Below are positions 1 through 46,493 of a stretch of DNA of 64,000 bases, piece by piece; position 1 is the stretch's first letter, and the number at the start of each line of letters is the position of its first letter. Source of the DNA: Escherichia coli (GTDB lineage: Bacteria > Pseudomonadota > Gammaproteobacteria > Enterobacterales > Enterobacteriaceae); assembly GCF_022846255.1 (NCBI RefSeq), contig NZ_AP025682.1, one strand, 5' to 3'. The notes under the pieces are model-generated. The model saw nothing but the letters and a program-made list of their open reading frames with translations, made no database searches and was not told the origin of the DNA. Both the position numbers and the translations under genes were made by a program.

Positions 1-708
1 GCGGTAATCACCCGCTTTGGTGTCGCGCCCTTTATCTGCACCCTCGGTATGATGTACGTCGCCCGTGGCTCTGCCCTGCTGTTTAATGATGGCAGCACTT
101 ACCCCAATCTCAACGGCATGGAGGCACTGGGCAACACGGGTTTCGCCACCCTTGGTTCTGGCACGTTTTTAGGCGTTTATTTGCCAATCTGGCTGATGAT
201 TGGCTTTTTGATTTTAGGCTACTGGATCACGACTAAAACGCCGCTCGGTCGTTATATCTATGCCATTGGTGGCAATGAATCTGCCGCGCGACTGGCAGGC
301 GTACCCATCGTAAAAGTCAAAGTGTTCGTCTATGCGTTCTCCGGATTATGCGCCGCATTTGTCGGTTTGATTGTTGCCTCGCAGCTGCAAACCGCTCACC
401 CAATGACCGGCAATATGTTCGAAATGGATGCTATCGGTGCCACGGTTCTTGGTGGAACTGCGCTGGCAGGTGGTCGGGGACGTGTCTCTGGCTCGATTAT
501 CGGTGCCTTTGTCATTGTCTTCCTCGCCGATGGCATGGTGATGATGGGGGTCAGTGATTTCTGGCAAATGGTCATTAAAGGCCTCGTTATCGTCACCGCC
601 GTGGTAGTCGATCAGTTCCAGCAAAAATTGCAAAACAAAGTCATTTTGATGCGTCGCCATGAAGAAAAGATGGCCGCCGCACCTGCCGTAAAACCGCTTT
701 CCAGTTAA
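1..708 (+). CDS. ABC-type sugar transporter permease, C-terminal part (5' end lies outside the window)
   Basis: Frame 1 is open from position 1 to the TAA at 706-708. Hydrophobic TM-rich protein with an RbsC/AraH-family-like C-terminal region. Not present at this position in K-12 as recalled. Confidence 0.7.
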   Translation, partial: AVITRFGVAPFICTLGMMYVARGSALLFNDGSTYPNLNGMEALGNTGFATLGSGTFLGVYLPIWLMIGFLILGYWITTKTPLGRYIYAIGGNESAARLAGVPIVKVKVFVYAFSGLCAAFVGLIVASQLQTAHPMTGNMFEMDAIGATVLGGTALAGGRGRVSGSIIGAFVIVFLADGMVMMGVSDFWQMVIKGLVIVTAVVVDQFQQKLQNKVILMRRHEEKMAAAPAVKPLSS

Positions 709-721
709 TTAACATCATTCC

Positions 722-743
722 GCCGGGCATTAAATTGCCCGGC
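722..743 (+). terminator. GC-rich hairpin between permease and first dehydrogenase (gccgggca-ttaaat-tgcccggc); possible weak terminator or attenuator
   Basis: Perfect 8-bp inverted repeat seen directly; the downstream T-tract is weak (ttataca). Confidence 0.3.
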
Positions 744-761
744 TTATACAGGGGAAAAAAT

Positions 762-1559
762 ATGCAACGTAATTTTCAGGGTAAGACTGTAGTTATTACC
801 GGGGCATGCCGGGGAATTGGGGCCGGGATCGCTGAACGCTTCGCCCGCGATGGCGCAAATCTGGTGATGGTTTCTAACGCTGCACGCGTGCATGAAACTG
901 CTGAGCAACTGCGCCAATGTTATCAGGCTGACATTTTGTCATTAGAAGTCGATGTGACAGATGAAGCGCAAGTACAGGCACTCTATGAACAAGCGGCTGC
1001 ACGTTTTGGCAGCATCGATGTTTCCATTCAGAATGCAGGCATTATCACCATCGATTATTTTGATCGAATGCCGGCTGCTGATTTCGAAAAAGTGCTGGCG
1101 GTGAACACTACGGCAGTCTGGCTCTGCTGCCGGGAAGCAGCCAAATATATGGTGAAACAAAATCACGGCTGCCTGATCAACACCTCTTCTGGCCAGGGAC
1201 GTCAGGGGTTTATCTATACCCCACACTATGCAGCCAGCAAAATGGGTGTGATCGGCATTACGCAAAGCCTGGCGCACGAGTTAGCGCAGTGGAATATCAC
1301 TGTTAACGCCTTCTGCCCTGGTATTATCGAAAGCGAAATGTGGGACTACAACGACCGCGTATGGGGAGAAATTCTCAGTACCGATGACAAGCGTTATGGC
1401 AAAGGCGAGCTTATGGCGGAATGGGTGGAAGGTATTCCGATGAAGCGTGCCGGTAAACCTGAAGATGTTGCCGGACTGGTTGCCTTCCTCGCCTCTGACG
1501 ATGCGCGTTATCTCACCGGTCAAACCATCAACATCGACGGCGGCCTGATTATGTCGTAA
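762..1559 (+). CDS. Short-chain dehydrogenase/reductase, sorbitol-6-phosphate dehydrogenase-like
   Basis: ATG at 762 preceded by a purine-rich RBS (cagggga). Rossmann motif TGACRGIGAG and catalytic Y-x3-K (YAASK). The ORF-track start at 735 lies inside the upstream hairpin and is unlikely. Confidence 0.8.
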   Translation: MQRNFQGKTVVITGACRGIGAGIAERFARDGANLVMVSNAARVHETAEQLRQCYQADILSLEVDVTDEAQVQALYEQAAARFGSIDVSIQNAGIITIDYFDRMPAADFEKVLAVNTTAVWLCCREAAKYMVKQNHGCLINTSSGQGRQGFIYTPHYAASKMGVIGITQSLAHELAQWNITVNAFCPGIIESEMWDYNDRVWGEILSTDDKRYGKGELMAEWVEGIPMKRAGKPEDVAGLVAFLASDDARYLTGQTINIDGGLIMS

Positions 1560-1591
1560 TGCCCCTGCGGGCTACTAAGAGAGATATCAAA

Positions 1592-2377
1592 ATGATCGCA
1601 AAAGATTTTGCTCAACAATTGTTTGATCTCCACGATCGCGTCGCCTTTGTCACTGGCGCAGGTAGCGGTATCGGACAAATGATCGCTCTGGCTTTAGCCA
1701 GCGCAGGCGCACGAGTGGTGTGTTTTGATCTACGGGAAGATGGCGGACTCAAAGAGACGGTTAATCATATCGAAGCACTTGGCGGACAAGCCTTGTATTA
1801 CACGGGCGATGTTCGGGAATTGAGAGATCTTCGCGCAGCAGTCGCTCTGGCAAAAACACATTTTGGTCGTCTGGATATTGCCGTAAACGCCGCTGGAATC
1901 GCTAACGCAAACCCGGCGCTGGAGATGGAAAGCGAGCAATGGCAACGCGTTATCGATATCAACCTGACTGGTGTGTGGAATTCCTGTAAGGCGGAAGCCG
2001 AGTTAATGGTAGAGAACGGAGGCGGCTCGATTATAAATATTGCGTCAATGTCCGGGATTATCGTCAATCGCGGTCTGGAACAGGCTCACTACAACAGCTC
2101 CAAAGCAGGCGTGATTCATTTATCTAAAAGTCTTGCGATGGAATGGGTGAGTAAAGGGATCCGTGTGAACTCAATCAGTCCAGGATATACCGCAACACCA
2201 ATGAATACCCGACCTGAAATGGTGCATCAGACTCGGGAGTTTGAAATCCAGACGCCGATTCAGCGGATGGCGAAAGTGGAAGAGATGGCGGGTCCAGCGC
2301 TGTTCCTTGCCAGCGATGCGGCGTCGTTCTGCACTGGTGTTGATCTGGTGGTCGATGGTGGTTTTGTCTGCTGGTAA
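1592..2377 (+). CDS. Short-chain dehydrogenase/reductase, gluconate 5-dehydrogenase / KduD-like
   Basis: ATG at 1592 with RBS aagagag upstream. Motif TGAGSGIG and catalytic Y-x3-K (YNSSK). The ORF-track start at 1559 overlaps the stop of the upstream gene. Confidence 0.8.
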   Translation: MIAKDFAQQLFDLHDRVAFVTGAGSGIGQMIALALASAGARVVCFDLREDGGLKETVNHIEALGGQALYYTGDVRELRDLRAAVALAKTHFGRLDIAVNAAGIANANPALEMESEQWQRVIDINLTGVWNSCKAEAELMVENGGGSIINIASMSGIIVNRGLEQAHYNSSKAGVIHLSKSLAMEWVSKGIRVNSISPGYTATPMNTRPEMVHQTREFEIQTPIQRMAKVEEMAGPALFLASDAASFCTGVDLVVDGGFVCW

Positions 2378-2486
2378 AAATGGTTTCGCCCGCAGCCATC
2401 ACTGACCGCGGGCGAAAGTGTAAAGCAGGTGCCTTACCACCCTGACCTGACAACCGGATATGCGGGGATTGCTCCCCGCACAACGG

Positions 2487-2639
2487 CTACTTCTTCGGTT
2501 CGTAAGCGAGAACAACCTTAAACTCAATATTACGTTCCTTTACGGTAAACTCACACAGCGAGTCTCCGACCAGAAGCGTAAATCCCAGCACCGTTAAACA
2601 CAGCACTATGACTGCCACAAGGGCATATTTCGTCAGCAT
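2487..2639 (-). CDS. hokE: Hok-family type I toxin (50 aa), copy 1
   Basis: Protein [50 protein letters not shown] matches the Hok/Gef family; single TM helix; cat (ATG on the reverse strand) at 2637-2639. Confidence 0.85.
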
Positions 2640-2739
2640 GTTTATATTGCCTCCATGCGAAGAAGGGACTACCATCCAAATTGTTCAGGTTTGGGTAGGT
2701 AGCCCCAAGGTTGATAGAAATATCGTCCTGGGGCTTCAT
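2551..2739 (-). CDS. mokE: mok (modulator of killing) leader ORF overlapping the hok start, copy 1
   Basis: 62-aa ORF in a different frame overlapping the 5' end of hok, the standard hok/sok architecture; translation not verifiable from sequence. Confidence 0.5.
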
Positions 2740-2990
2740 CTTTCCAGACCTCAGAGTAAACCTGAAACCGGAAAGCTTCAGGCACCCGCAGTTATCTTAC
2801 CCTTCCTTAGCAAAATAGCTGTTTATTTATACAGTGAGTCCTGTTTAGGACTTTTCACCTGTATTATCGCCCATGCCAGTAAAACGAAATCGCCCGCAGC
2901 CATCTCTGACTGCGGGCGAAAGTGTAAAGCAGGTGCCTTACCATCCTGACCTGACAACCGGATATGCGGGGATTACTCCCCGCACAACGG

Positions 2991-3143
2991 CTACTTCTTC
3001 GGTTCGTAAGCGAGAACAGCCTTAAACTCAATATTACGTTCCTTTACGGTAAACTCACACAGCGAGTCTCCGACCAGAAGCGTAAATCCCAGCACCGTTA
3101 AACACAGCACTATGACTGCCACAAGGGCATATTTCGTCAGCAT
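2991..3143 (-). CDS. hokE: Hok-family type I toxin (50 aa), copy 2
   Basis: Same as copy 1 except Val to Ala at residue 42 (EFKAV); this version matches the K-12 HokE sequence as recalled. Confidence 0.85.
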
Positions 3144-3243
3144 GTTTATATTGCCTCCATGCGAAGAAGGGACTACCATCCAAATTGTTCAGGTTTGGGT
3201 AGGTAGCCCCAGGGTTGATAGAAATATCGTCCTGGGGCTTCAT
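3055..3243 (-). CDS. mokE: mok leader ORF, copy 2
   Basis: Overlapping ORF as in copy 1, with a Leu to Pro difference at residue 11. Confidence 0.5.
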
Positions 3244-3579
3244 CTTTCCAGACCTCAGAGTAAACCTGAAACCGGAAAGCTTCAGGCACCCGCAGTTATC
3301 TTACCCTTCCTTAGCAAAATAGCTGTTTATTTATACAGTGAGTCCTGTTTCGGACTTCTCATTTAATCAACTGAAGCTGAACCCGTTTTTTTCTGCATGC
3401 CTCAATCGTCAAAATTCTTCGCCGCCAGCCAGCTCTGCCATAACTTGTCACATTGCAAAAGTAGCCAAATTGCTTCAGTCACAATCAGTTCTCCATCACC
3501 AAAAAAAGAAACATTCCAGAACTTCCGCATCTCACCCAGCCGCTCCCACTTCTATACTGAATAGAAAACGCCAACATAA

Positions 3580-4707
<1,128 letters not shown>

Positions 4708-9197: not shown

Positions 9198-12100
9198 TTA
9201 TTTCCGTACCCGATGTCGGTGCAGCCACATCAGCTTATACGCCGCCGGGATAATAAACAGCGACAGCAAAGGCGCGGTGATCATGCCGCCAATCATCGGC
9301 GCGGCAATCCGGCTCATCACCTCTGACCCTGCTCCTGTTCCCCACAGAATCGGCAGCAGACCAGCGATAATCACCGCCACCGTCATCGCTTTTGGGCGCA
9401 CGCGCAGTACCGCGCCGTGATATAACGCCTCATCCAGCTTCTGCTCGCTGAATGTTTGCGGATTATTCAACGACGGCTCGGCCTCTATGGCGTGACGTAA
9501 ATACATCAGCATCACCACGCCAAATTCGGCGGCGACCCCGGCAAGGGCAATAAAACCGGTGCCCGTCGCCACGGAAAGATGAAAGCCCATCCACCACAGC
9601 AACCAGATGCCGCCCACCAGCGCAAACGGTACGCTGCTGATAATCAGCAACGCTTCGCCCACCCGACGGAACGCCAGATACAACAGCACGAAGATGATCA
9701 TCAGCGTCATCGGCACCATCAGTTTCAGCTTATGGTTGGCGCGCTCCAGTAGCTCGAACTGCCCGGAGAATGCCACGCTAGTGCCCGGTTTTAACTGCAC
9801 TTTTTCAGCTATCGCTTTTTGCAGATCGTGAACCACCGACACCATGTCACGATCGCGGGCATCGATATAAATCCAGCTCGTCGGGCGCGCATTCTCGGTT
9901 TTCAGCATCGACGGTCCGGTAGAGACTTTAACGTCGGCCACGTCCGCCAGAGTGATTTGCTGCTTCATCGGCGTGAGGATCGGCAACTGGCGCAGTGCCT
10001 GCGGGCTATCGCGCCAGCTTTGCGGATAACGCAGATTAATTGGATAACGAGCAATCCCTTCCACCGTTTCGCCAACCATCGCCCCGCCCACCGCAGAAGT
10101 CACAAACAACTGCACATCCGCCACCGTCATACCGTAACGCGCGGCTTTTTCACGGTTAATCTCAACGTTGATATAGCGCCCACCTTCCAGACGCTCAGCA
10201 AGCGCAGAAGCCACGCCTGGCACCGTTCGCGCCACTTCTTCAATTTGCTCCGCCATCGTGTCGATATCCGCCAGCACAGTGCCGGAAACTTTAATGCCGA
10301 TAGGGCTTTTAATGCCAGTCGAGAGCATATCGATACGGTTACGAATTGGCGGCACCCACAGATTCGCCAGCCCCGGCAGACGCACGGTGTTATCCAGTTC
10401 CTCAATGATTTTGTCCATCGTCATGCCAGGCCGCCACTGATCCTGCGGCTTAAGCTGGATAGTCGTTTCTACCATCTCCAGTGGAGCAGAATCGGTGGCG
10501 GTTTCCGCTTTCCCGGTTTTGCCAAATACCCGCGCCACTTCAGGTACGCTCATAATCAGCTTGTCGGTTTTTTGCAGCATACTCGCCGCCTCCGCTGCGG
10601 AAATCCCCGGCAGCGTCGATGGCATATACAACAAGTCGCCTTCATTGATCTGCGGTAAAAATTCCCCGCCCACTTTATTGAGCGGCCAGAGAACCGTCAG
10701 CACCGAAAGCGCTGCCACCAACAGCGTGGTTTTCGGCCAGTGCAGTACTTTCAGCAACAGCGGATGATAAACACGAATCAAAAAGCGATTGAGCGGGTTA
10801 CTGCTTTCTGGCGGAATTTTGCCACGGATCCAGTAGCCCATCAGGATCGGGATCACTACAATCGCCAGTAGCGCCGCGCCCGCCATCGCATAGGTTTTGG
10901 TGAACGCCAGCGGGCCAAACAGACGACCTTCCTGCCCTTCCAGGGTGAAGATCGGGATAAACGACAGCGTGATAATCAGCAGACTGATAAACAGCGCCGG
11001 CCCCACTTCAACAGATGCATCGGTGATCACCTGCCAGCGCGTTTTATTATCCAGCGTGGCGTCAGGATGCTGGTGCTGCCACTCTTCCAGCCGTTTATGC
11101 GCATTCTCGATCATGACGATAGCGGCATCGACCATCGCCCCGACGGCAATCGCAATGCCACCCAACGACATAATATTGGCGTTCAGTCCCTGAAAGTGCA
11201 TGACAATAAAAGCAATACACAACCCCAGCGGCAACGAAATAATCGCCACCAGCGCCGAGCGCACATGCCAGAGAAACAGCGCACAGACTACCGCCACCAC
11301 AATAAACTCTTCCAGCAACTTGCCGCTGAGGTTGTCAATGGCGCGGTCAATGAGCTGGCTGCGATCGTATGTTGTAACTATCTCCACGCCTTCCGGCAGA
11401 CTGCTTTTCAGCGTTTCCAGTTTGTCCTTCACGGCGGCGATTACTTCTCGGGCGTTTTTGCCGGAGCGCAGGATCACCACCCCGCCCGCCACTTCGCCTT
11501 CGCCGTTCAGTTCGGCAATGCCCCGGCGCATCTCCGGGCCAATCTGGACCTTCGCAACATCACGCAGATAAACGGGCACGCCATTTTCACTGGCTTTTAA
11601 AACGATGTGATTAAAGTCGTCGAGCGTTTGCAGATAGCCGCTGGCTCGCACCATATATTCCGCTTCCGCCAGTTCGATCGACGAACCACCCGCTTCCTGG
11701 TTTGAAGCATCCAGCGCGCTTTTTACTTCGGCGAGACTGATGCCATATTGCGCCAGGCGCTGAGGATCGATAACCACCTGATACTCTTTCACCACACCGC
11801 CTACCGACGCCACTTCCGCAACGTCAGGAATGGTTTTCAGCTCATATTTGAGAAACCAGTCCTGCAATGAGCGTAAATCGGCAAGATCGTGCTTACCGCT
11901 GCGATCCACCAGTGCATATTCATAGATCCAGCCAACACCCGTGGCATCTGGCCCCAGCTCGGCGCTGACTCCCGCAGGCAGCTTACCCTGTACCTGGTTG
12001 AGGTACTCCAGCACCCGCGAGCGCGCCCAGTACGGATCGGTGCCATCTTCGAAAATGACATACACATAAGAGTCGCCAAACTGCGAGAAACCGCGCACAG

Positions 12101-12341
12101 TCTTCGCGCCAGGCACCGACAACATGGTGGTGGTTAGCGGATAAGTCACCTGATTTTCAACGATTTGCGGTGCCTGACCGGGATAGCTGGTTTTAATAAT
12201 CACCTGCACATCAGAGAGATCCGGCAGTGCATCCACTGGCGTGTTAATGATGGTCCAGGTGCCCCAGATACTCAGAAACAACGCGCCCATCAGCACCAGA
12301 AAACGGTTCGCCACCGAGCGACGAATAATCCATTCAATCAT
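9198..12341 (-). CDS. cusA: RND copper/silver efflux pump CusA
   Basis: 1047-aa RND transporter; start [16 protein letters not shown]. Confidence 0.95.
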
Positions 12342-12352
12342 TGGTTATTCCC

Positions 12353-13576
12353 TCAATGCGCATGGGTAGCACTTTCAGAGCGCATCCGCTCCAGTGCGCC
12401 AGAAATATTGGCTTCGGAATCAATCAGGAACAGGCCGCTGGAAACCACCTTTTCACCTTCCGCCAGACCAGAGCGTAATGCGGTGACGCCTTGCGATGCC
12501 TGGAAAACGGCAACGCGTTTCGGTACAAAGCGCCCGTCGGCATCAACGGTAATCACCCGCTGTTCGCTGCCGGTATCAATCAGCGCTTGTGACGGAATGA
12601 GCAGCATCGGTTCGCTGGCGGTGTTGAGTTGCAACCAGGCGTTCATTCCCGGCTTTAGCGCCTCGTCGGTGTTGTCGACTTCCAGGCGCAGCTGCAGCGT
12701 GCGGGTTGCGGCATCCACGCCGGGTAGCAGCGTCCATTTGCGGATGGTGAGTGTTTTATCAGGTCGTGCCGGAACGGTGAGCGTAAACTGCGAGGCATCT
12801 TTCACCAGCCAGGCGATGGACTCCGGGATCGCGGCAGTGATCCACACCGGGTCCATACCCTGAATTTTCGCGACCACGTTATCTTTGGCGATATTCATTC
12901 CCGCGCGCAGATCAAACGCGGTGATCACGCCATCAATGGGCGATTTGAGCGTAAAGCGAGTCTGGATTTTTTGCGTGGCGATCAGGCGGCGAATATCCGC
13001 CTCCGGCATTCCCGCCAGTCGCAGTCGCTCAAGAATGCCTTCAGTCTGGGTCGCCGTACCGCCGGTTTCGCGCAGCAGTAAATACTCACTCTGCGCTTCC
13101 ACCCAGTCGGGAATGGTCAGGTCGAGAAGCGGCGCGCCCTTTTGCACTTTATCGCCCACGGTAAGCGGATACACCTTGTCGATAAACCCGGCGGCGCGGG
13201 CCTGCACAATGGCATACTGATACTCGTTGTAACTGACATTCGCCGGGAAACTCTGGGAAAAAGTCAGCGGCCCGCGCGTGACGGTCGCCGTTTTCACCCC
13301 CAGATTCTGCGTCTGAGTCGGGTCAATGCGCACACCAGACGCAGAACTCTCTTCATCGGCATATTTCGGCACCAGATCCATATCCATAAACGGCGATTTC
13401 CCTGGTTTATCGAACCGCGTATTGGGATACATCGGGTCGTACCAGAATAAGACTTTACGTTCTGCGGTCGACGTTTTTTCTGCGGGCGGTTCCTCCTTTG
13501 CAAACCAGGTAAAACCTGCCGCAGAAATAATACCGCCCGCGATCATGCTGCCGATAATAAGCGCGATTTTTTTCAT
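12353..13576 (-). CDS. cusB: Periplasmic adaptor (membrane fusion protein) CusB
   Basis: 407-aa product immediately upstream of cusA. Confidence 0.95.
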   Translation of the reverse strand: MKKIALIIGSMIAGGIISAAGFTWFAKEEPPAEKTSTAERKVLFWYDPMYPNTRFDKPGKSPFMDMDLVPKYADEESSASGVRIDPTQTQNLGVKTATVTRGPLTFSQSFPANVSYNEYQYAIVQARAAGFIDKVYPLTVGDKVQKGAPLLDLTIPDWVEAQSEYLLLRETGGTATQTEGILERLRLAGMPEADIRRLIATQKIQTRFTLKSPIDGVITAFDLRAGMNIAKDNVVAKIQGMDPVWITAAIPESIAWLVKDASQFTLTVPARPDKTLTIRKWTLLPGVDAATRTLQLRLEVDNTDEALKPGMNAWLQLNTASEPMLLIPSQALIDTGSEQRVITVDADGRFVPKRVAVFQASQGVTALRSGLAEGEKVVSSGLFLIDSEANISGALERMRSESATHAH

Positions 13577-13591
13577 CTCATTAAACCTGGG

Positions 13592-13924
13592 TTACTGGCT
13601 GACTTTAATATCCTGTAATAAAGAAAGGCTGCCCTGCTGGACAAAATTAAACGCCACTTTGTCGCCGGTTTTAATTTCGCTCATTTTCGTCTGCGGGGTG
13701 ATGGTAAAGCGCATAGTCATCTCCGGCCAGTTCACGGCAGCAATCGGATCGTGATGGATGGTGATTTTTTTGCTTTCCAGATCAACACCTTTTACCACCC
13801 CAGTGGCGCTAATAACCTGTGGTTGTGCTTCGCTCATGGTTTCATGATGATGTTCGTTAGCCTGGGCATTAAAGCCAATAACGGTAAACAGACTAAACAT
13901 TGCGACTTGCAGTGCTTTTTTCAT
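13592..13924 (-). CDS. cusF: Periplasmic copper chaperone CusF
   Basis: 110 aa with signal peptide and His/Met-rich metal-binding region. Confidence 0.95.
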   Translation of the reverse strand: MKKALQVAMFSLFTVIGFNAQANEHHHETMSEAQPQVISATGVVKGVDLESKKITIHHDPIAAVNWPEMTMRFTITPQTKMSEIKTGDKVAFNFVQQGSLSLLQDIKVSQ

Positions 13925-13947: not shown

Positions 13948-15330
13948 TTATTGCTGCCAACCGCCCCCTAAGGCGGTATATAAAGAAATTTCGTTAACCT
14001 GACGGGCATAATTCAGGTCAAGTAAAGTTTGTCGGGTTGCAAATAAAGAACGCTCGGCATCCAGCACTTCCAGATAACTTACCGCGCCGTGCTGATATAA
14101 TGCCCGCGCCCGTTGCAAAGTAATTTGCAGCGACGCAAGATAACGCTGCTGGGCGCTGATTTGATCGTTCAGGCTTTGACGTAATGCCAGCGCATCTGCC
14201 ACTTCTTTAAAGGCGTTCTGGATTTTCTGTTCATAATTCACCACCGACTGCTGCTGGCGAATTTCGGCGATATCCAGATTGGCCTGGTTGCGTCCAGCAT
14301 TAAAAATGGGGATCTCAATTTTAGGAATAAAATTCCACATCCCGCTGCTGGCATTAAATAATGACGACAGATCGCTGCTGGCGGTTGATATTCCGCTGGT
14401 CAGGCTGATAGACGGGAAAAATGCCGCACGCGCAGCACCAATATTGGCATTAGCCGCCATTAACGCGTGTTCAGCTTCCATAATATCAGGGCGCTGCAAT
14501 AAGATTTGCGACGACAAGCCCGCCGGTAATTTAACGCTTTGCAGGCTGTCGCTGTTTACTGTCTGCGCTTGCGGCAGCTTGCCGTAGCTTCCCAATAACA
14601 GTTGCAATGCATTATTTGCCTGCGCCAGTTCCCCCTGACGTTTAGCGATGTCGCTGCGGGTACTTTCTATCACCCCGCGAGCCTGTTCCAGCGCCAGAAC
14701 ATTGCTGCTACCGGTCAACAGTTGTTTTTCGACAAACGCATATGACTGCTGATAATTACGCAGCGTTTCTTCGGCTATTTGCAATTGCGCATACGCCAGT
14801 TGCTGATTGAAATAGCTTTGCGCGACATTAGAAACCAGCAAAATATGCACCGCGCGCTGAGCTTCCTCAGTGGCTAAATAATTTTGGCGCTCGGCTTCGC
14901 TCATGTTCTTTAAGCGCCCGAAAAAATCGAGATCAAAGCTGGCGTTAAGGCCAGTCGAGAACTCCCGCGTCGTGGCTGAATCGCCTTTAAGATTGCCGCT
15001 CCAGCTGCCGCTGCCCTCGCCATTGAGCTGTGGGTAGCGGTCGGCATCGGTCAGACGATATTGCGCCCGCGCTTCCTGCACTTTCAGCGCCGCCATGCGC
15101 AAATCCCGGTTATTCACCAACGCCTCGCTAATCAGCGTCTTCACCTGATTATCAACAAAAAAGGTGCGCCAGCCTGCGTTCTGGTAGTTATCTGCTGCGT
15201 TAACCAGGCCGTTCTGGCTGAGTGAGAACTGCTGAGGAACGGGCATTGCCGGACGCTGATAATCCGGTGCCAGTGAACAACCGGTTAGCGCAAGGGCCAC
15301 ACAAAATGGCAGAAGTTTACAAGGAGACAT
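13948..15330 (-). CDS. cusC: Outer-membrane efflux lipoprotein CusC
   Basis: 460-aa ORF with a lipobox (LTGC) and OMF/TolC-family repeats; exact start not verified. Confidence 0.93.
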   Translation of the reverse strand: MSPCKLLPFCVALALTGCSLAPDYQRPAMPVPQQFSLSQNGLVNAADNYQNAGWRTFFVDNQVKTLISEALVNNRDLRMAALKVQEARAQYRLTDADRYPQLNGEGSGSWSGNLKGDSATTREFSTGLNASFDLDFFGRLKNMSEAERQNYLATEEAQRAVHILLVSNVAQSYFNQQLAYAQLQIAEETLRNYQQSYAFVEKQLLTGSSNVLALEQARGVIESTRSDIAKRQGELAQANNALQLLLGSYGKLPQAQTVNSDSLQSVKLPAGLSSQILLQRPDIMEAEHALMAANANIGAARAAFFPSISLTSGISTASSDLSSLFNASSGMWNFIPKIEIPIFNAGRNQANLDIAEIRQQQSVVNYEQKIQNAFKEVADALALRQSLNDQISAQQRYLASLQITLQRARALYQHGAVSYLEVLDAERSLFATRQTLLDLNYARQVNEISLYTALGGGWQQ

Positions 15331-15399
15331 AGGCTCATAATTTCTGGTGATTTTATGCTGCCAACTTTACTCGCCAGGCTCTGATTTTCCGGTGACAGG

Positions 15400-15421
15400 A
15401 AAATGACAAAATTGTCATTTT
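15400..15421. promoter_or_regulatory. CusR box: perfect 22-bp palindrome AAAATGACAAAATTGTCATTTT in the cusC-cusR divergent promoter region
   Basis: Palindrome seen directly; matches the described CusR operator between cusC and cusR. Confidence 0.85.
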
Positions 15422-15486
15422 GCCAATAAGCGATTGCCATCTGATCCCGCTACTCTAGAATTGCCCGGGCAACATGCGGAGGAAAT

Positions 15487-16170
15487 ATGAAACTGTTGAT
15501 TGTCGAAGATGAAAAGAAAACCGGAGAATACTTGACCAAAGGGTTAACCGAAGCCGGTTTTGTGGTCGATTTGGCCGACAACGGGCTGAATGGCTACCAT
15601 CTGGCGATGACCGGTGATTATGATCTGATAATCCTCGATATTATGCTGCCGGACGTGAACGGCTGGGATATCGTGCGCATGTTGCGTTCCGCCAATAAGG
15701 GGATGCCGATTCTGTTGCTTACCGCGCTTGGCACCATTGAACATCGCGTCAAGGGGCTGGAGTTGGGGGCGGATGACTATCTGGTGAAGCCGTTCGCTTT
15801 TGCTGAACTGCTGGCGCGGGTGCGCACTCTACTGCGGCGCGGGGCGGCGGTGATTATCGAAAGTCAGTTTCAGGTTGCCGATCTGATGGTCGATCTCGTC
15901 AGCCGCAAAGTCACCCGCAGCGGCACGCGCATCACTCTGACCAGTAAAGAATTTACTCTGCTGGAGTTTTTCCTCCGCCATCAGGGCGAAGTGCTGCCCC
16001 GCTCGCTTATCGCCTCGCAGGTATGGGACATGAATTTTGACAGCGATACCAACGCCATTGATGTGGCGGTGAAGCGGCTGCGCGGCAAAATCGACAACGA
16101 CTTTGAGCCAAAGTTGATTCAGACCGTGCGCGGCGTGGGTTACATGCTAGAGGTGCCGGATGGTCAGTAA
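15487..16170 (+). CDS. cusR: Response regulator CusR (OmpR family)
   Basis: 227 aa with receiver and winged-helix domains. Confidence 0.95.
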
Positions 16171-17602
16171 GCCATTTCAGCGCCCGTTTTCGCTGGCAAC
16201 CCGCCTGACCTTTTTTATCAGCCTCGCCACCATCGCGGCGTTTTTCGCCTTTGCATGGATCATGATCCACTCGGTAAAAGTGCATTTTGCCGAGCAGGAT
16301 ATTAATGATTTAAAGGAGATTAGCGCCACCCTTGAACGGGTACTTAATCACCCTGACGAAACGCAAGCCCGACGCTTAATGACGCTGGAAGATATCGTCA
16401 GTGGTTATTCCAATGTGTTGATCTCCCTGGCAAATAGCCACGGTAAAACGGTGTATCACTCCCCAGGTGCGCCGGATATCCGCGAGTTTACGCGTGACGC
16501 CATACCCGATAAAGACGCGCAGGCTGGCGAGGTGTATCTCCTTTCCGGCCCGACGATGATGATGCCAGGGCACGGTCACGGGCATATGGAACACAGCAAC
16601 TGGCGGATGATTAACTTGCCGGTTGGCCCGCTGGTTGACGGCAAACCGATTTATACGCTCTACATCGCGCTTTCGATCGATTTTCATCTTCATTACATCA
16701 ATGATTTGATGAATAAACTTATTATGACCGCATCGGTAATCAGCATCCTGATCGTCTTTATCGTGCTGTTGGCGGTATATAAAGGTCATGCGCCGATCCG
16801 CAGCGTCAGCCGTCAAATCCAGAATATCACCTCGAAAGATCTCGACGTTCGCCTTGACCCGCAGACCGTGCCCATTGAGCTGGAACAGCTGGTACTGTCG
16901 TTCAACCATATGATCGAGCGTATTGAGGATGTCTTTACCCGCCAGTCCAATTTCTCAGCGGATATAGCCCACGAAATTCGCACACCTATTACTAATCTCA
17001 TTACGCAAACGGAAATCGCCCTCAGCCAGTCGCGCAGCCAGAAGGAGCTGGAAGATGTGCTCTACTCTAATCTCGAAGAGCTGACGCGAATGGCGAAAAT
17101 GGTCAGCGATATGCTGTTTCTTGCTCAGGCCGATAACAACCAGCTAATCCCCGAAAAGAAAATGCTCAACCTGGCGGATGAAGTCGGCAAAGTGTTCGAT
17201 TTTTTCGAGGCGTTAGCAGAAGATCGCTGCGTGGAGCTGCGGTTTGTTGGCGACGAGTGTCAGGTTGCGGGCGATCCGCTGATGCTGCGTCGGGCGTTAA
17301 GCAACCTGCTTTCTAATGCCCTGCGTTATACGCCAACCGGAGAGACAATTGTCGTGCGCTGCCAGACGGTCGATCACCTGGTGCAAGTTACCGTCGAAAA
17401 CCCCGGTACGCCCATTGCGCCCGAACACTTACCGCGATTGTTTGACCGTTTCTACCGCATTGATCCTTCCCGCCAGCGAAAAGGCGAAGGTAGCGGCATT
17501 GGTCTGGCGATAGTGAAATCGATTGTTGTCGCGCATAAAGGCACTGTTACAGTAACGTCAGATGCACGGGGGACAAGGTTTGTTATCATATTACCCGCTT
17601 AA
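16160..17602 (+). CDS. cusS: Sensor histidine kinase CusS
   Basis: 480 aa; overlaps the cusR stop by 11 nt; HAMP and HisKA/HATPase motifs. Confidence 0.95.
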
Positions 17603-17751: not shown

Positions 17752-19989
17752 GTGGACTGGCTTCTTGATGTTTTTGCTACCTGGCTCTACGGCTTAAAAG
17801 TAATCGCGATAACGTTAGCGGTCATTATGTTCATCAGCGGGCTGGACGATTTTTTTATTGATGTCGTCTACTGGGTACGCCGCATTAAACGCAAGTTGAG
17901 TGTTTATCGCCGCTACCCGCGAATGAGTTACCGCGAACTGTATAAACCAGATGAAAAACCGTTAGCGATTATGGTTCCGGCGTGGAATGAAACGGGCGTC
18001 ATCGGCAATATGGCCGAGCTGGCGGCGACCACGCTCGACTACGAAAACTATCATATCTTTGTTGGCACCTACCCCAACGACCCCGATACTCAGCGTGATG
18101 TTGACGAAGTGTGCGCTCGCTTCCCGAACGTGCATAAGGTAGTCTGCGCGCGTCCTGGCCCCACCAGCAAAGCCGACTGTCTGAACAACGTGCTGGACGC
18201 CATCACCCAATTTGAACGTAGCGCCAATTTCGCTTTTGCTGGTTTTATTCTGCATGACGCCGAAGATGTGATTTCACCGATGGAATTGCGTCTGTTCAAC
18301 TATCTGGTCGAGCGTAAAGATCTGATTCAGATCCCAGTGTATCCGTTCGAACGCGAATGGACGCACTTCACCAGCATGACCTACATTGATGAGTTTTCAG
18401 AACTGCATGGCAAAGATGTTCCGGTGCGTGAAGCCCTCGCCGGACAGGTGCCCAGCGCAGGCGTCGGCACCTGTTTCAGCCGCCGCGCCGTGACCGCACT
18501 GTTAGCTGACGGTGACGGTATTGCTTTCGACGTGCAGAGTCTGACTGAAGATTACGACATTGGCTTCCGCCTGAAAGAGAAAGGTATGACGGAAATTTTT
18601 GTCCGTTTTCCGGTGGTGGACGAAGCCAAAGAACGCGAGCAGCGTAAATTTTTACAGCATGCGCGGACGTCAAACATGATCTGCGTGCGCGAATATTTCC
18701 CCGATACCTTTTCGACTGCGGTTCGGCAAAAATCTCGCTGGATCATCGGCATTGTTTTCCAGGGCTTTAAAACCCACAAATGGACCTCCAGCCTGACGCT
18801 GAACTACTTTCTCTGGCGCGACCGCAAAGGGGCAATCAGTAACTTTGTCAGCTTCCTCGCGATGCTGGTGATGATCCAGCTTTTGCTGTTGCTGGCGTAT
18901 GAAAGTTTGTGGCCCGATGCCTGGCATTTCCTTTCTATTTTCAGCGGCAGCGCATGGTTAATGACTCTGCTGTGGCTAAACTTTGGCTTGATGATTAACC
19001 GCATCGTGCAGCGGGTGATTTTCGTTACTGGCTACTACGGCCTGACGCAGGGGCTGCTATCTGTCCTGCGTCTTTTCTGGGGCAACCTGATTAACTTCAT
19101 GGCCAACTGGCGCGCGTTAAAACAGGTACTTCAACACGGCGATCCACGTCGCGTCGCGTGGGATAAAACAACGCATGACTTCCCCAGCGTGACTGGCGAT
19201 ACCCGCTCGTTGCGTCCGTTAGGTCAAATCCTGCTGGAAAATCAGGTCATCACTGAAGAACAACTCGATACAGCACTGCGTAATCGCGTCGAAGGTCTAC
19301 GCCTGGGCGGTTCAATGCTGATGCAGGGGCTGATTAGCGCCGAGCAACTGGCACAGGCGCTGGCAGAGCAAAACGGCGTGGCGTGGGAATCCATCGATGC
19401 CTGGCAGATCCCTTCCTCGCTGATTGCCGAAATGCCGGCCTCCGTGGCGTTGCATTATGCGGTACTGCCGCTGCGTCTGGACAATGATGAGTTAATTGTC
19501 GGCAGTGAAGATGGTATTGACCCGGTTTCGCTGGCGGCCCTGACGCGTAAAGTCGGACGCAAAGTGCGTTACGTCATTGTTCTGCGGGGACAAATTGTCA
19601 CCGGATTACGCCACTGGTATGCACGCCGACGCGGTCACGATCCGCGGGCAATGTTGTACAATGCAGTTCAGCATCAGTGGCTCACGGAACAGCAGGCCGG
19701 TGAAATCTGGCGGCAATATGTGCCGCATCAGTTCCTGTTCGCAGAAATACTGACCACGCTCGGTCATATTAATCGTTCAGCAATTAACGTGTTGTTATTG
19801 CGCCATGAACGCAGTTCTCTGCCGCTCGGCAAGTTTTTGGTCACCGAAGGCGTTATCAGCCAGGAAACGTTGGATCGCGTCCTGACAATTCAACGCGAAT
19901 TACAAGTTTCGATGCAATCACTATTACTCAAAGCAGGTTTAAACACTGAACAGGTTGCACAACTGGAGTCCGAAAATGAAGGAGAATAA
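17752..19989 (+). CDS. nfrB: NfrB, inner-membrane glycosyltransferase-family protein required for phage N4 adsorption
   Basis: 745 aa; GT2-like N-terminal region and C-terminal soluble domain. Confidence 0.93.
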   Translation: MDWLLDVFATWLYGLKVIAITLAVIMFISGLDDFFIDVVYWVRRIKRKLSVYRRYPRMSYRELYKPDEKPLAIMVPAWNETGVIGNMAELAATTLDYENYHIFVGTYPNDPDTQRDVDEVCARFPNVHKVVCARPGPTSKADCLNNVLDAITQFERSANFAFAGFILHDAEDVISPMELRLFNYLVERKDLIQIPVYPFEREWTHFTSMTYIDEFSELHGKDVPVREALAGQVPSAGVGTCFSRRAVTALLADGDGIAFDVQSLTEDYDIGFRLKEKGMTEIFVRFPVVDEAKEREQRKFLQHARTSNMICVREYFPDTFSTAVRQKSRWIIGIVFQGFKTHKWTSSLTLNYFLWRDRKGAISNFVSFLAMLVMIQLLLLLAYESLWPDAWHFLSIFSGSAWLMTLLWLNFGLMINRIVQRVIFVTGYYGLTQGLLSVLRLFWGNLINFMANWRALKQVLQHGDPRRVAWDKTTHDFPSVTGDTRSLRPLGQILLENQVITEEQLDTALRNRVEGLRLGGSMLMQGLISAEQLAQALAEQNGVAWESIDAWQIPSSLIAEMPASVALHYAVLPLRLDNDELIVGSEDGIDPVSLAALTRKVGRKVRYVIVLRGQIVTGLRHWYARRRGHDPRAMLYNAVQHQWLTEQQAGEIWRQYVPHQFLFAEILTTLGHINRSAINVLLLRHERSSLPLGKFLVTEGVISQETLDRVLTIQRELQVSMQSLLLKAGLNTEQVAQLESENEGE

Positions 19990-33637: not shown

Positions 33638-35023
33638 TTACTTACGACGCCAGGTGGTCCCTTGTGGGCCATCTTCCAGCACGATCCCCATCTCGTTAAG
33701 ACGGTCACGCGCCGCATCTGCCGCCGCCCAGTCTTTCGCTTTACGGGCATCCAGACGCTGTTGAATTAACGCTTCAATCTCAGCCACTTCGCTGTCGTCT
33801 GCCTGCGCGCCGCTTTGCAGGAACGCTTCTGGTTCTTGCTCCAGCAGGCCCAATACGGCGGAAAGTTTACGCAGATGAGACGCCATTGCGTTCGCCGCTG
33901 CCATATCTTCTGCTTTCAGACGGTTCACTTCACGGGCCATATCAAACAGCACGGAATAGGCTTCCGGGGTGTTGAAATCGTCGTCCATCGCTTCAATAAA
34001 GCGCGCTTCAAACGCTTCGCCACCGGCAGGCGCAACAGTTTTATCTGTGCCGCGCAGCGCAGTGTAGAGACGCTCCAGCGCCGCACGCGCCTGCTTCAGG
34101 TTCTCTTCGCTGTAGTTCAGCTGGCTGCGATAGTGGCCCGACATCAGGAAGTAACGCACGGTTTCAGCATCGTAGTATTTCAGCACATCGCGCACGGTAA
34201 AGAAGTTACCCAGCGATTTGGACATCTTCTCGCGGTCAACCATCACCATTCCGGAGTGCATCCAGTAGTTCACATACTGACCATCATGGGCACAGGTGGA
34301 CTGCGCGATTTCGTTTTCGTGGTGCGGGAACATCAGGTCAGAACCGCCGCCGTGGATATCAAAGTGGTTACCCAGCTGCTTGCAGTTCATTGCCGAACAT
34401 TCAATGTGCCAGCCAGGACGGCCCGCGCCCCACGGAGACGGCCAGCTCGGTTCGCCCTCTTTCGACATCTTCCACAGAACGAAGTCCATCGGGTTGCGTT
34501 TGTCGTCGACCACGTCAACGCGCGCGCCTGCCTGCAGCTGGTCGAGATCCTGACGCGACAGCACGCCATATGTCGGATCGGTCGGTACGTCAAACATCAC
34601 GTCGCCGTTGTCCGCCACATAAGCGTGACCTTTGGCGATCAGTTGTTCAGTGAGTTCAATAATTTCTGCGATATGGTGCGTCGCGCGCGGCTCCATATCC
34701 GGGCGCAAAATGTTCAACGCATCAAAATCTTTATGCATTTCGGCGATCATGCGATCCACCAGCGCCACAAAGCTTTCGCCATTTTCATTGGCGCGTTTGA
34801 TGATTTTGTCGTCGATATCAGTAATGTTGCGCACATACTTCAGCTTATAGCCGAGGAAACGCAGGTAGCGCGCGACCACGTCAAAGGCAACAAAGGTACG
34901 CCCGTGACCGATATGACAGAGATCGTAAACGGTGATTCCACACACGTACATGCCGACTTCCCCGGCGTGAATAGGCTTAAATTCCTCTTTTTGGCGTGTC
35001 AGAGTATTGAAGATTTTTAGCAT
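33638..35023 (-). CDS. cysS: Cysteinyl-tRNA synthetase
   Basis: 461 aa; HIGH (HIGH at CHIGHGRT) and KMSKS motifs present. Confidence 0.97.
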
Positions 35024-38123: not shown

Positions 38124-38310
38124 GCCGGATGCGGCGTGAACGCCTTATCCGGCCTACCGTTCCAACACCGCCTGTAGGCCTGATAAGATGCGCCAGCATC
38201 GCATCAGGCATGGTGTGCCGATTGCCGCATGCGGCGTGAACGCCTTATCCGGCCTACCGTTCCAACACCGACTGTAGGCCTGATAAGACGCGCCAGCATC
38301 GCATCAGGCT
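38124..38310. repeat. BIME: two tandem units of about 101 bp, each an inverted REP pair
   Basis: gcc(g/a)(g/c)atgcggcgtgaacgccttatccggcctac ... ctgtaggcctgataaga(t/c)gcgccagcatcgcatcaggc occurs twice in direct repeat. Confidence 0.85.
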
Positions 38311-46410: not shown

Positions 46411-46452
46411 GTCATACCACTCGCCTGATTATTTTTAGCTATGTTGGATTTT

Positions 46453-46479
46453 GCCACGGTTTATACCGTGGCTTTTTTT
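46453..46479 (+). terminator. Rho-independent terminator after allE
   Basis: gccacggt-ttat-accgtggc followed by ttttttt. Confidence 0.7.
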
Positions 46480-46493
46480 GTAGTCAATTCAGG

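Follow-up and report, generated by a model that had tools for sequence, protein, structure and literature searches.

The CusR operator of the cusC-cusR spacer in an Escherichia coli genome and its putative asymmetric extension toward cusC

The spacer between the divergent cusC and cusR genes of this Escherichia coli genome contains the element AAAATGACAAAATTGTCATTTT, located at positions 15400-15421 of the window (the whole 64,000-nucleotide stretch of DNA that we analyzed). We are nearly certain that this element is the copper/silver operator of CusSR, a single site from which both divergent promoters, those of cusCFBA and cusRS, are activated. The operator is already known, and its binding at the spacer, its copper dependence, and its dual activation are shown in the literature. 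Our analysis demonstrated identity of the window element to the published box, its gene context, and its deep conservation, and we found nothing that contradicted the CusR-operator reading. These results confirm a known operator, one that governs the efflux of copper and silver in E. coli and is widely used in copper biosensors.

A repeat finder resolved the element into two arms of 10 nt each, AAAATGACAA (15400-15409) and TTGTCATTTT (15412-15421), which are 100% complementary and flank a 2-nt gap (AA at 15410-15411; the box as a whole is unstranded). Core half-sites were TGACA at 15404-15408 and TGTCA at 15413-15417. The first-pass annotation had described a perfect 22-bp inverted repeat at exactly this location. 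The location and the perfect complementarity of the arms both held, but the central AA is not self-complementary, which makes the box a hyphenated inverted repeat (10+2+10), not a strict 22-bp palindrome, and “perfect 22-bp” a slight overstatement. A nonpalindromic AA center fits the “nn” of the published CusR consensus. The spacer extends over 156 bp (15331-15486) from the cusC start to the cusR start at 15487; with the box center at 15410.5 and the spacer midpoint at 15408.5, only 2 bp apart, it was fair to describe the box as centered between the divergent operons.

Within the 64-kb window, the pattern AAAATGACAANNTTGTCATTTT matched once even when 3 mismatches were allowed, against 0.02 matches expected, and the sequence at 15400-15421 had no mismatches to AAAATGACAA-NN-TTGTCATTTT. 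When we counted perfect inverted repeats whose arms were 10 nt or longer and whose gap did not exceed 4 nt, the window had 2, compared with a mean of 0.37 in dinucleotide shuffles, and the naive expectation for such a repeat within the 156-bp spacer was 0.0007. The other perfect repeat of this kind in the window, CCGGATGCGA-AAAC-TCGCATCCGG at 33603-33626, occupies a 35-bp gap between convergent open reading frames (ORFs) at 33081-33602 (plus strand; 173 aa, the size of ybcI) and 33638-35023 (minus strand; 461 aa, the size of cysS) and looks like a shared terminator-type hairpin.

The identity of the flanking genes was established with NCBIfam models and with the RefSeq annotation of identical and 98.7%-identical E. 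coli loci, which placed cusCFBA on the minus strand and cusRS on the plus strand around the box. On the plus strand, cusR (15487-16170) encodes a 227-aa response regulator of the OmpR/PhoB family (RefSeq annotation; equivalog NF007346 at 507.9 bits, with a cutoff of 420), and cusS (16160-17602) encodes the Cu(I)/Ag(I) sensor histidine kinase (NF007345, 980 bits). On the minus strand, cusC (13948-15330), the first gene of the activated operon, encodes the 460-aa outer-membrane channel (NF007347, 906.7 bits) and is accompanied by cusF (13592-13924; NF007348, 204 bits), cusB (12353-13576), and cusA (9198-12341), the last two identified by their ORFs and by how the identical locus is annotated in strain A20. 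Over 556 bp around the spacer, the window matched E. coli strain A20 at 100% identity and K-12 at 98.7%, and this region was found in 5,332 of 5,426 complete E. coli genomes. All 22 bases of the box are the same in K-12 and the window; in the spacer, K-12 and the window differ by two substitutions outside the box, 15359 T/C and 15399 G/A.

Several other features of the locus were observed. CusC is 460 aa in both the window and A20 and 457 aa in K-12 (1,374-nt coding sequence), a difference of three codons. Collinearity between the window and A20 is confined to the surroundings of the cus region, and gene coordinates diverge at approximately 1-3600 and beyond approximately 23800; the window has a tRNA at 24831-24904 (minus strand), and A20 has a tRNA-Arg at locus position 27399-27475. 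In A20, nfrB carries a 1-nt deletion that causes a frameshift, whereas nfrB in the window is intact as a 745-aa ORF (17752-19989). The window also contains a tandem duplication at 2377-3291 with a 504-bp period, whose copies (2377-2676 and 2881-3180) are 97% identical. Two Rfam matches to the sok antitoxin RNA (2631-2787 and 3135-3291) fall within it, indicating that a hok/sok-type toxin-antitoxin unit has been duplicated; A20, which is otherwise nearly identical, has an ISL3 transposase in its place. Additional Rfam matches were two copies of naRNA4 (minus strand) and the enterobacterial small RNA STnc480, at 38177-38254, 59520-59597, and 46417-46483.

Published data on this spacer agree with the operator assignment. 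The E. coli CusR box has been reported to lie between cusRS and cusC(F)BA as the palindrome AAAATGACAAnnTTGTCATTTT, with a related box at pcoE (PMC11195947, in which the consensus is credited to earlier work), and the box is attributed in the citing literature to Yamamoto and Ishihama 2005 and Munson et al. 2000. At every specified base, the window box agreed with AAAATGACAAnnTTGTCATTTT. ChIP-chip in K-12 yielded a single CusR peak genome-wide, at the cusC-cusR spacer, and an earlier conclusion cited in the same report was that the CusR box is found only there (bioRxiv 10.1101/2020.08.17.251918). Likewise, the single high peak of unphosphorylated CusR in genomic SELEX with K-12 was at this spacer, where unphosphorylated CusR was described as a repressor of cusCFBA; CusR~P acquires additional targets (PMC8249747), and more than 10 have been reported for it. 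The box is stated to be required for copper/silver-dependent activation of both operons (PMC10920338, PMC12589874). The gene context, the published consensus, and the ChIP-chip and genomic SELEX results at the spacer support the proposal of the first-pass annotation that the box is the CusR operator, and we found no data in the literature that place CusR elsewhere in the spacer.

We observed deep conservation of the box. With a 30-nt BLAST query comprising the box and 8 additional nucleotides (15400-15429), 5,148 of 5,334 E. coli records were 100% identical, and the median copy number per genome was one; the other records fell in the 95-99% identity band (184 records with one mismatch) or in the 90-95% band (2 records with two mismatches). 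One two-mismatch case was inspected, a natural variant in E. coli N96, AAAATGACAATACTGTCATTTT (locus positions 101-122), in which the changes affect a single spacer base and the right-arm base closest to the spacer, giving CTGTCAT; this innermost base is that of Citrobacter and Klebsiella. Genome-wide uniqueness of the box rests on the literature (bioRxiv 10.1101/2020.08.17.251918) and on the single BLAST copy per genome.

For a broader view of the spacer, we aligned seven enterobacterial spacers, namely two from E. coli, one each from Citrobacter (an enterobacterial locus among the CusR matches listed) and Klebsiella, and three from sil plasmids, with the Klebsiella and sil spacers taken from a plasmid collection. 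Both arms were invariant in this alignment (15402-15409 and 15413-15421), as were islands on the cusC side (15364-15369, ACT-TA; 15381-15385, CTG-T; 15392-15396, GTGAC) and on the cusR side (15434-15436, TTG; 15456-15461, TA-AAT; and the cusR Shine-Dalgarno sequence). Between these islands, the alignment varied freely. Farther afield, among the homologue matches listed, the core ATKACAANNTTGTMAT was present 60 to 95 nt upstream of cusR/copR homologues in beta- and gammaproteobacteria and occurred upstream in nearly all listed loci with a regulator identity of at least 55%; hiuH-hprR had this core as well. The dyad ATKACAA-NN-TTGTMAT was found within 3 mismatches in 33 of approximately 80 homologue loci listed, nearly all of them likewise with at least 55% regulator identity. 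As a dyad upstream of regulator and targets, the window box thus belongs with the “copper box” of the heavy-metal response regulators (CusR/SilR/PcoR/CopR/HprR).

The box also serves as the anchor for promoter architecture on both sides that the first-pass annotation had taken it to be, with a candidate cusR promoter and a candidate cusC -10 at conserved distances from it. On the plus strand, the putative cusR promoter (15434-15461) combines a -35 TTGCCA (15434-15439), a 16-bp spacer, and a -10 TAGAAT (15456-15461), and it is near consensus, with 10 of 12 matches in a promoter scan. The predicted cusR start at approximately 15468 would put the box center near -57, an upstream (class-I-like) activator position. 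A Shine-Dalgarno sequence for cusR, GGAGG, follows at 15478-15482 (plus strand), and its GG at 15481-15482 was invariant. On the minus strand, the cusC promoter appears to consist of a -10 TAAAGT (15364-15369), seen as the invariant ACT-TA of the enterobacterial spacers, without a recognizable -35. Transcription of cusC is predicted to start at approximately 15357, which would position the box center near -53.5. The promoter scan also returned a minus-strand TTGGCA-16-AATTAT (15364 to 15337), which we rejected as the main cusC promoter because its start would fall at the ATG and because its position is not conserved in Citrobacter, Klebsiella, and sil, whereas TAAAGT is.

Conservation outside the palindrome was asymmetric. 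When 31 nonredundant loci from the homologue matches listed were aligned on the palindrome center, with the flanks not used as an anchor, flank conservation was one-sided and strong away from the regulator gene: ten flank columns on the left and one on the right were conserved in at least 20 of the 31 loci, compared with a mean of 0.0025 after random re-registering. One of these blocks is a putative third half-site, GTGACA at 15392-15397 (unstranded; TGTCAC on the cusC-sense strand), recognized by its sequence conservation. Its center is 11 bp from the TGACA of the left arm, making it a direct repeat with that arm. The TGAC at the position of 15393-15396 was found in 23, 20, 27, and 26 of the 31 loci, base by base, and GTGAC was invariant in the seven enterobacterial cus/sil spacers; equivalents are GTGACT at pcoE and CTTACA at hiuH. 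Another 11 to 12 bp toward cusC lies the block CTGAT (15381-15385, unstranded), for which the family consensus is C-T-G-n-C. Its specified bases occurred in 26, 18, 21, and 23 of the 31 loci, with E. coli differing at the last C; in the enterobacterial alignment, no variation was seen at 15381-15383 (C, T, and G) or at 15385 (T). The 31 loci also tended to retain, at an unchanged distance from the box, the T and A of a minus-strand TAnnnT -10 (plus-strand A at 15364 in 23 of 31 loci and T at 15368 in 26 of 31). In most of the aligned loci, crude ORF calls placed on the extension side a divergently oriented gene whose product is an exported, copper-related protein.

These patterns, seen in comparisons with Citrobacter, Klebsiella, sil/pco plasmids, and about 25 cusR/copR loci of beta- and gammaproteobacteria, suggest to us, tentatively, that the 22-bp CusR palindrome may form just the central part of an operator-promoter module that is longer and asymmetric, shared from E. 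coli to the Burkholderiales and Pseudomonas, on which CusR-family regulators would activate in the manner of PhoB through phased protomers. As judged from sequence, the module would comprise the inverted arm, the left arm, the third half-site, the CTGnC block, and the -10, at fixed distances on the side of the target operon. The element at 15392-15397 would then be an additional CusR contact adjoining the missing -35 of the cusC promoter, and 15381-15385 could be either a fourth, degenerate half-site in the phased series or a promoter spacer element. Read in the cusC sense, the operator is TGACAA-TT-TTGTCAT-N5-TGTCAC, with half-site centers predicted near -58, -49, and -38. If the proposed module is correct, phased protomers reach the -35 of the target promoter and the inverted arm serves the promoter of the regulator itself. 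We found no description of the asymmetric extension in the literature searched; older footprint papers on the “cop box” or “copper box” may already cover it. Full-text searches returned no relevant direct-repeat or start-site description for the cusC promoter and none for CopR motifs, and a biosensor paper gave no details of promoter anatomy. An extension that is both real and previously undescribed would explain how a regulator of the OmpR/PhoB family, whose members normally bind direct repeats, uses an apparently palindromic site, and it would provide a rational basis for engineering PcusC-based sensors.

A refinement of the operator reading, which we consider quite plausible while placing it somewhat short of an even chance, is that the unit that activates cusC is a PhoB-type direct repeat, TGTCAT-N5-TGTCAC (cusC sense, 15408 to 15392), possibly continuing to 15385 to 15381, and that the palindrome arises from an abutting half-site of opposite orientation (15413-15418) that serves cusR. 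The like-oriented TGACA pentamers at 15393-15397 and 15404-15408, conserved and 11 bp apart, agree in sequence with the phased direct repeats of OmpR/PhoB-family regulators, in which like-oriented half-sites recur every 10 to 11 bp beside or across the -35. The members of this family solved with DNA (PhoB, KdpE, PmrA, and PhoP) use direct, tandem repeats; the PDB contains no CusR-DNA structure, the closest solved structures being those of other OmpR/PhoB regulators and of the PcoR DNA-binding domain. The fixed 11-bp phasing of the third half-site in the 31 loci and in all enterobacterial cus/sil spacers, the lack of comparable conservation on the cusR side, and the similar layout at pcoE and hiuH all argue for the direct repeat. 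However, the inverted arm is conserved as much as the direct arm. All 13 loci picked solely by the third half-site and the left arm also had the inverted right arm with at most 1 mismatch, and since these loci were chosen without the right arm, its presence is not an anchoring artifact. Furthermore, a clear third half-site is absent at pcoA, and in the homologous Pseudomonas palindrome, neither of the divergent promoters was induced by copper once 4 bases of one arm had been mutated (PMC11195947).

Genomic SELEX revealed a single high peak at the cusC-cusR spacer for HprR (YedW) as well, and this peak was higher than the one at its own hiuH/hprR spacer (PMC8249747). The site could on this evidence be mainly an HprR operator that ties peroxide/HOCl stress to cus, with CusR secondary. 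We consider such a hierarchy very unlikely in view of the location of the site next to cusR and the dependence of copper induction on CusSR (PMC10920338; bioRxiv 10.1101/2020.08.17.251918; PMC9302797). The HprR and CusR readings are in any case not exclusive, and cross-binding has already been documented.

Still less probable, to the point of being scarcely credible, is that the palindrome functions as a nucleic acid hairpin (a terminator, an RNA element, or a cruciform) instead of as a protein site. Its fold as single-stranded DNA has an energy of -7.7 kcal/mol (z = -3.1), but any palindrome folds, so this value is automatic. No terminator-like site was detected in 15250-15560, the stem is A/T-rich, and the box has neither the G+C-rich stem nor the T run of an intrinsic terminator. 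Because it lies upstream of both putative promoters, the box would not be transcribed; the spacer had no Rfam match, and it is half-site identity rather than compensatory pairing that has been kept across taxa. A functionless chance palindrome, in favor of which only the A/T richness of the spacer can be cited, has a negligible probability given that the pattern is expected 0.02 times per window and any such inverted repeat 0.0007 times per spacer, and it is refuted by conservation across bacterial families and by the published binding data.

In the CusR-operator reading, whose main steps are established in the literature, periplasmic Cu(I) or Ag(I) activates CusS, which phosphorylates CusR, and CusR binds AAAATGACAA-NN-TTGTCATTTT in the middle of the spacer. 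From this single box, expression of both the efflux pump (cusCFBA) and the regulators (cusRS, by positive autoregulation) is activated. The cusR promoter, with good -35 and -10 elements of its own, would be activated from the box at about -57. With a third half-site at 11 bp, predicted to be centered near -38, and a fixed-distance -10 without a recognizable -35, CusR~P probably reaches the cusC -35 via phased, PhoB-like protomers, a protomer arrangement that we infer from sequence features of the operator. HprR, a paralogue that responds to peroxide and HOCl, recognizes the CusR box too, and because both regulators recognize one box, the site is also a point of cross-regulation.

Among known systems, the element corresponds most directly to the CusR box of E. 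coli K-12, to which it is identical in its 22 bases, in its position between cusC and cusR, and in its consensus. On a pco/sil plasmid, ATKACAANNTTGTMAT was found at pcoE, pcoA, silC-silR, and silE; 45 kb yielded 6 hits, including 5 within the pco/sil island, compared with 0.78 expected. The alignment of the silC-silR spacer with the cusC-cusR spacer covers the box, the third half-site, and both promoters, and pcoE has the layout CTGTTT-N5-GTGACT-N5-ATGACAA with a TATAAT -10 at a cus-like distance. The pco/sil boxes differ from the cus box in being carried on mobile elements with the paralogous regulators PcoR and SilR and, at pcoA, in having no third half-site. In the pco/sil record of the Salmonella IncHI2 plasmid CP082444.1 (19400-21650), the silR/silS region downstream of the silC-silR box contained only short ORFs (91 and 171 aa), which suggests that the regulator genes carry frameshifts or sequencing errors, and the boxes were intact.

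The palindrome of Pseudomonas CusR/CopR/CzcR, ATTACATnnATGTAAT, resembles the cus box in lying between divergent regulator and target operons and in serving both promoters and several regulators from one site; it differs as a TTACA-type variant for which three regulators compete (PMC11195947). The HprR/CusR box of hiuH-hprR has been printed as CATTACAAAATTGTAATG (PMC9302797, citing Urano et al. 2015). In one E. coli genome, we read this box as CATTACAATTTTGTAATG, with a central TT and not the printed AA. Like the cus box, it separates a regulator gene from a divergent target and has a 6+4+6 core; its third half-site, of the TTACA type, and a hexamer resembling a -10 stand at cus-box distances. 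In contrast to the TGACA/TGTCA half-sites of cus, those of hiuH-hprR are TTACA/TGTAA and lack the A4/T4 extensions.

The pho box of PhoB, CTGTCAT-AWAW-CTGTCAY, replaces the -35 of its promoters. Its cusC-sense counterpart, TTGTCAT-TTTC-CTGTCAC (15419 to 15392), has the same heptad, 11-bp phasing, and orientation, with a downstream promoter that lacks a recognizable -35. The cus repeats differ from the pho box in being located about one helical turn further from the -10, in having an inverted third arm, and in the regulator that they serve.
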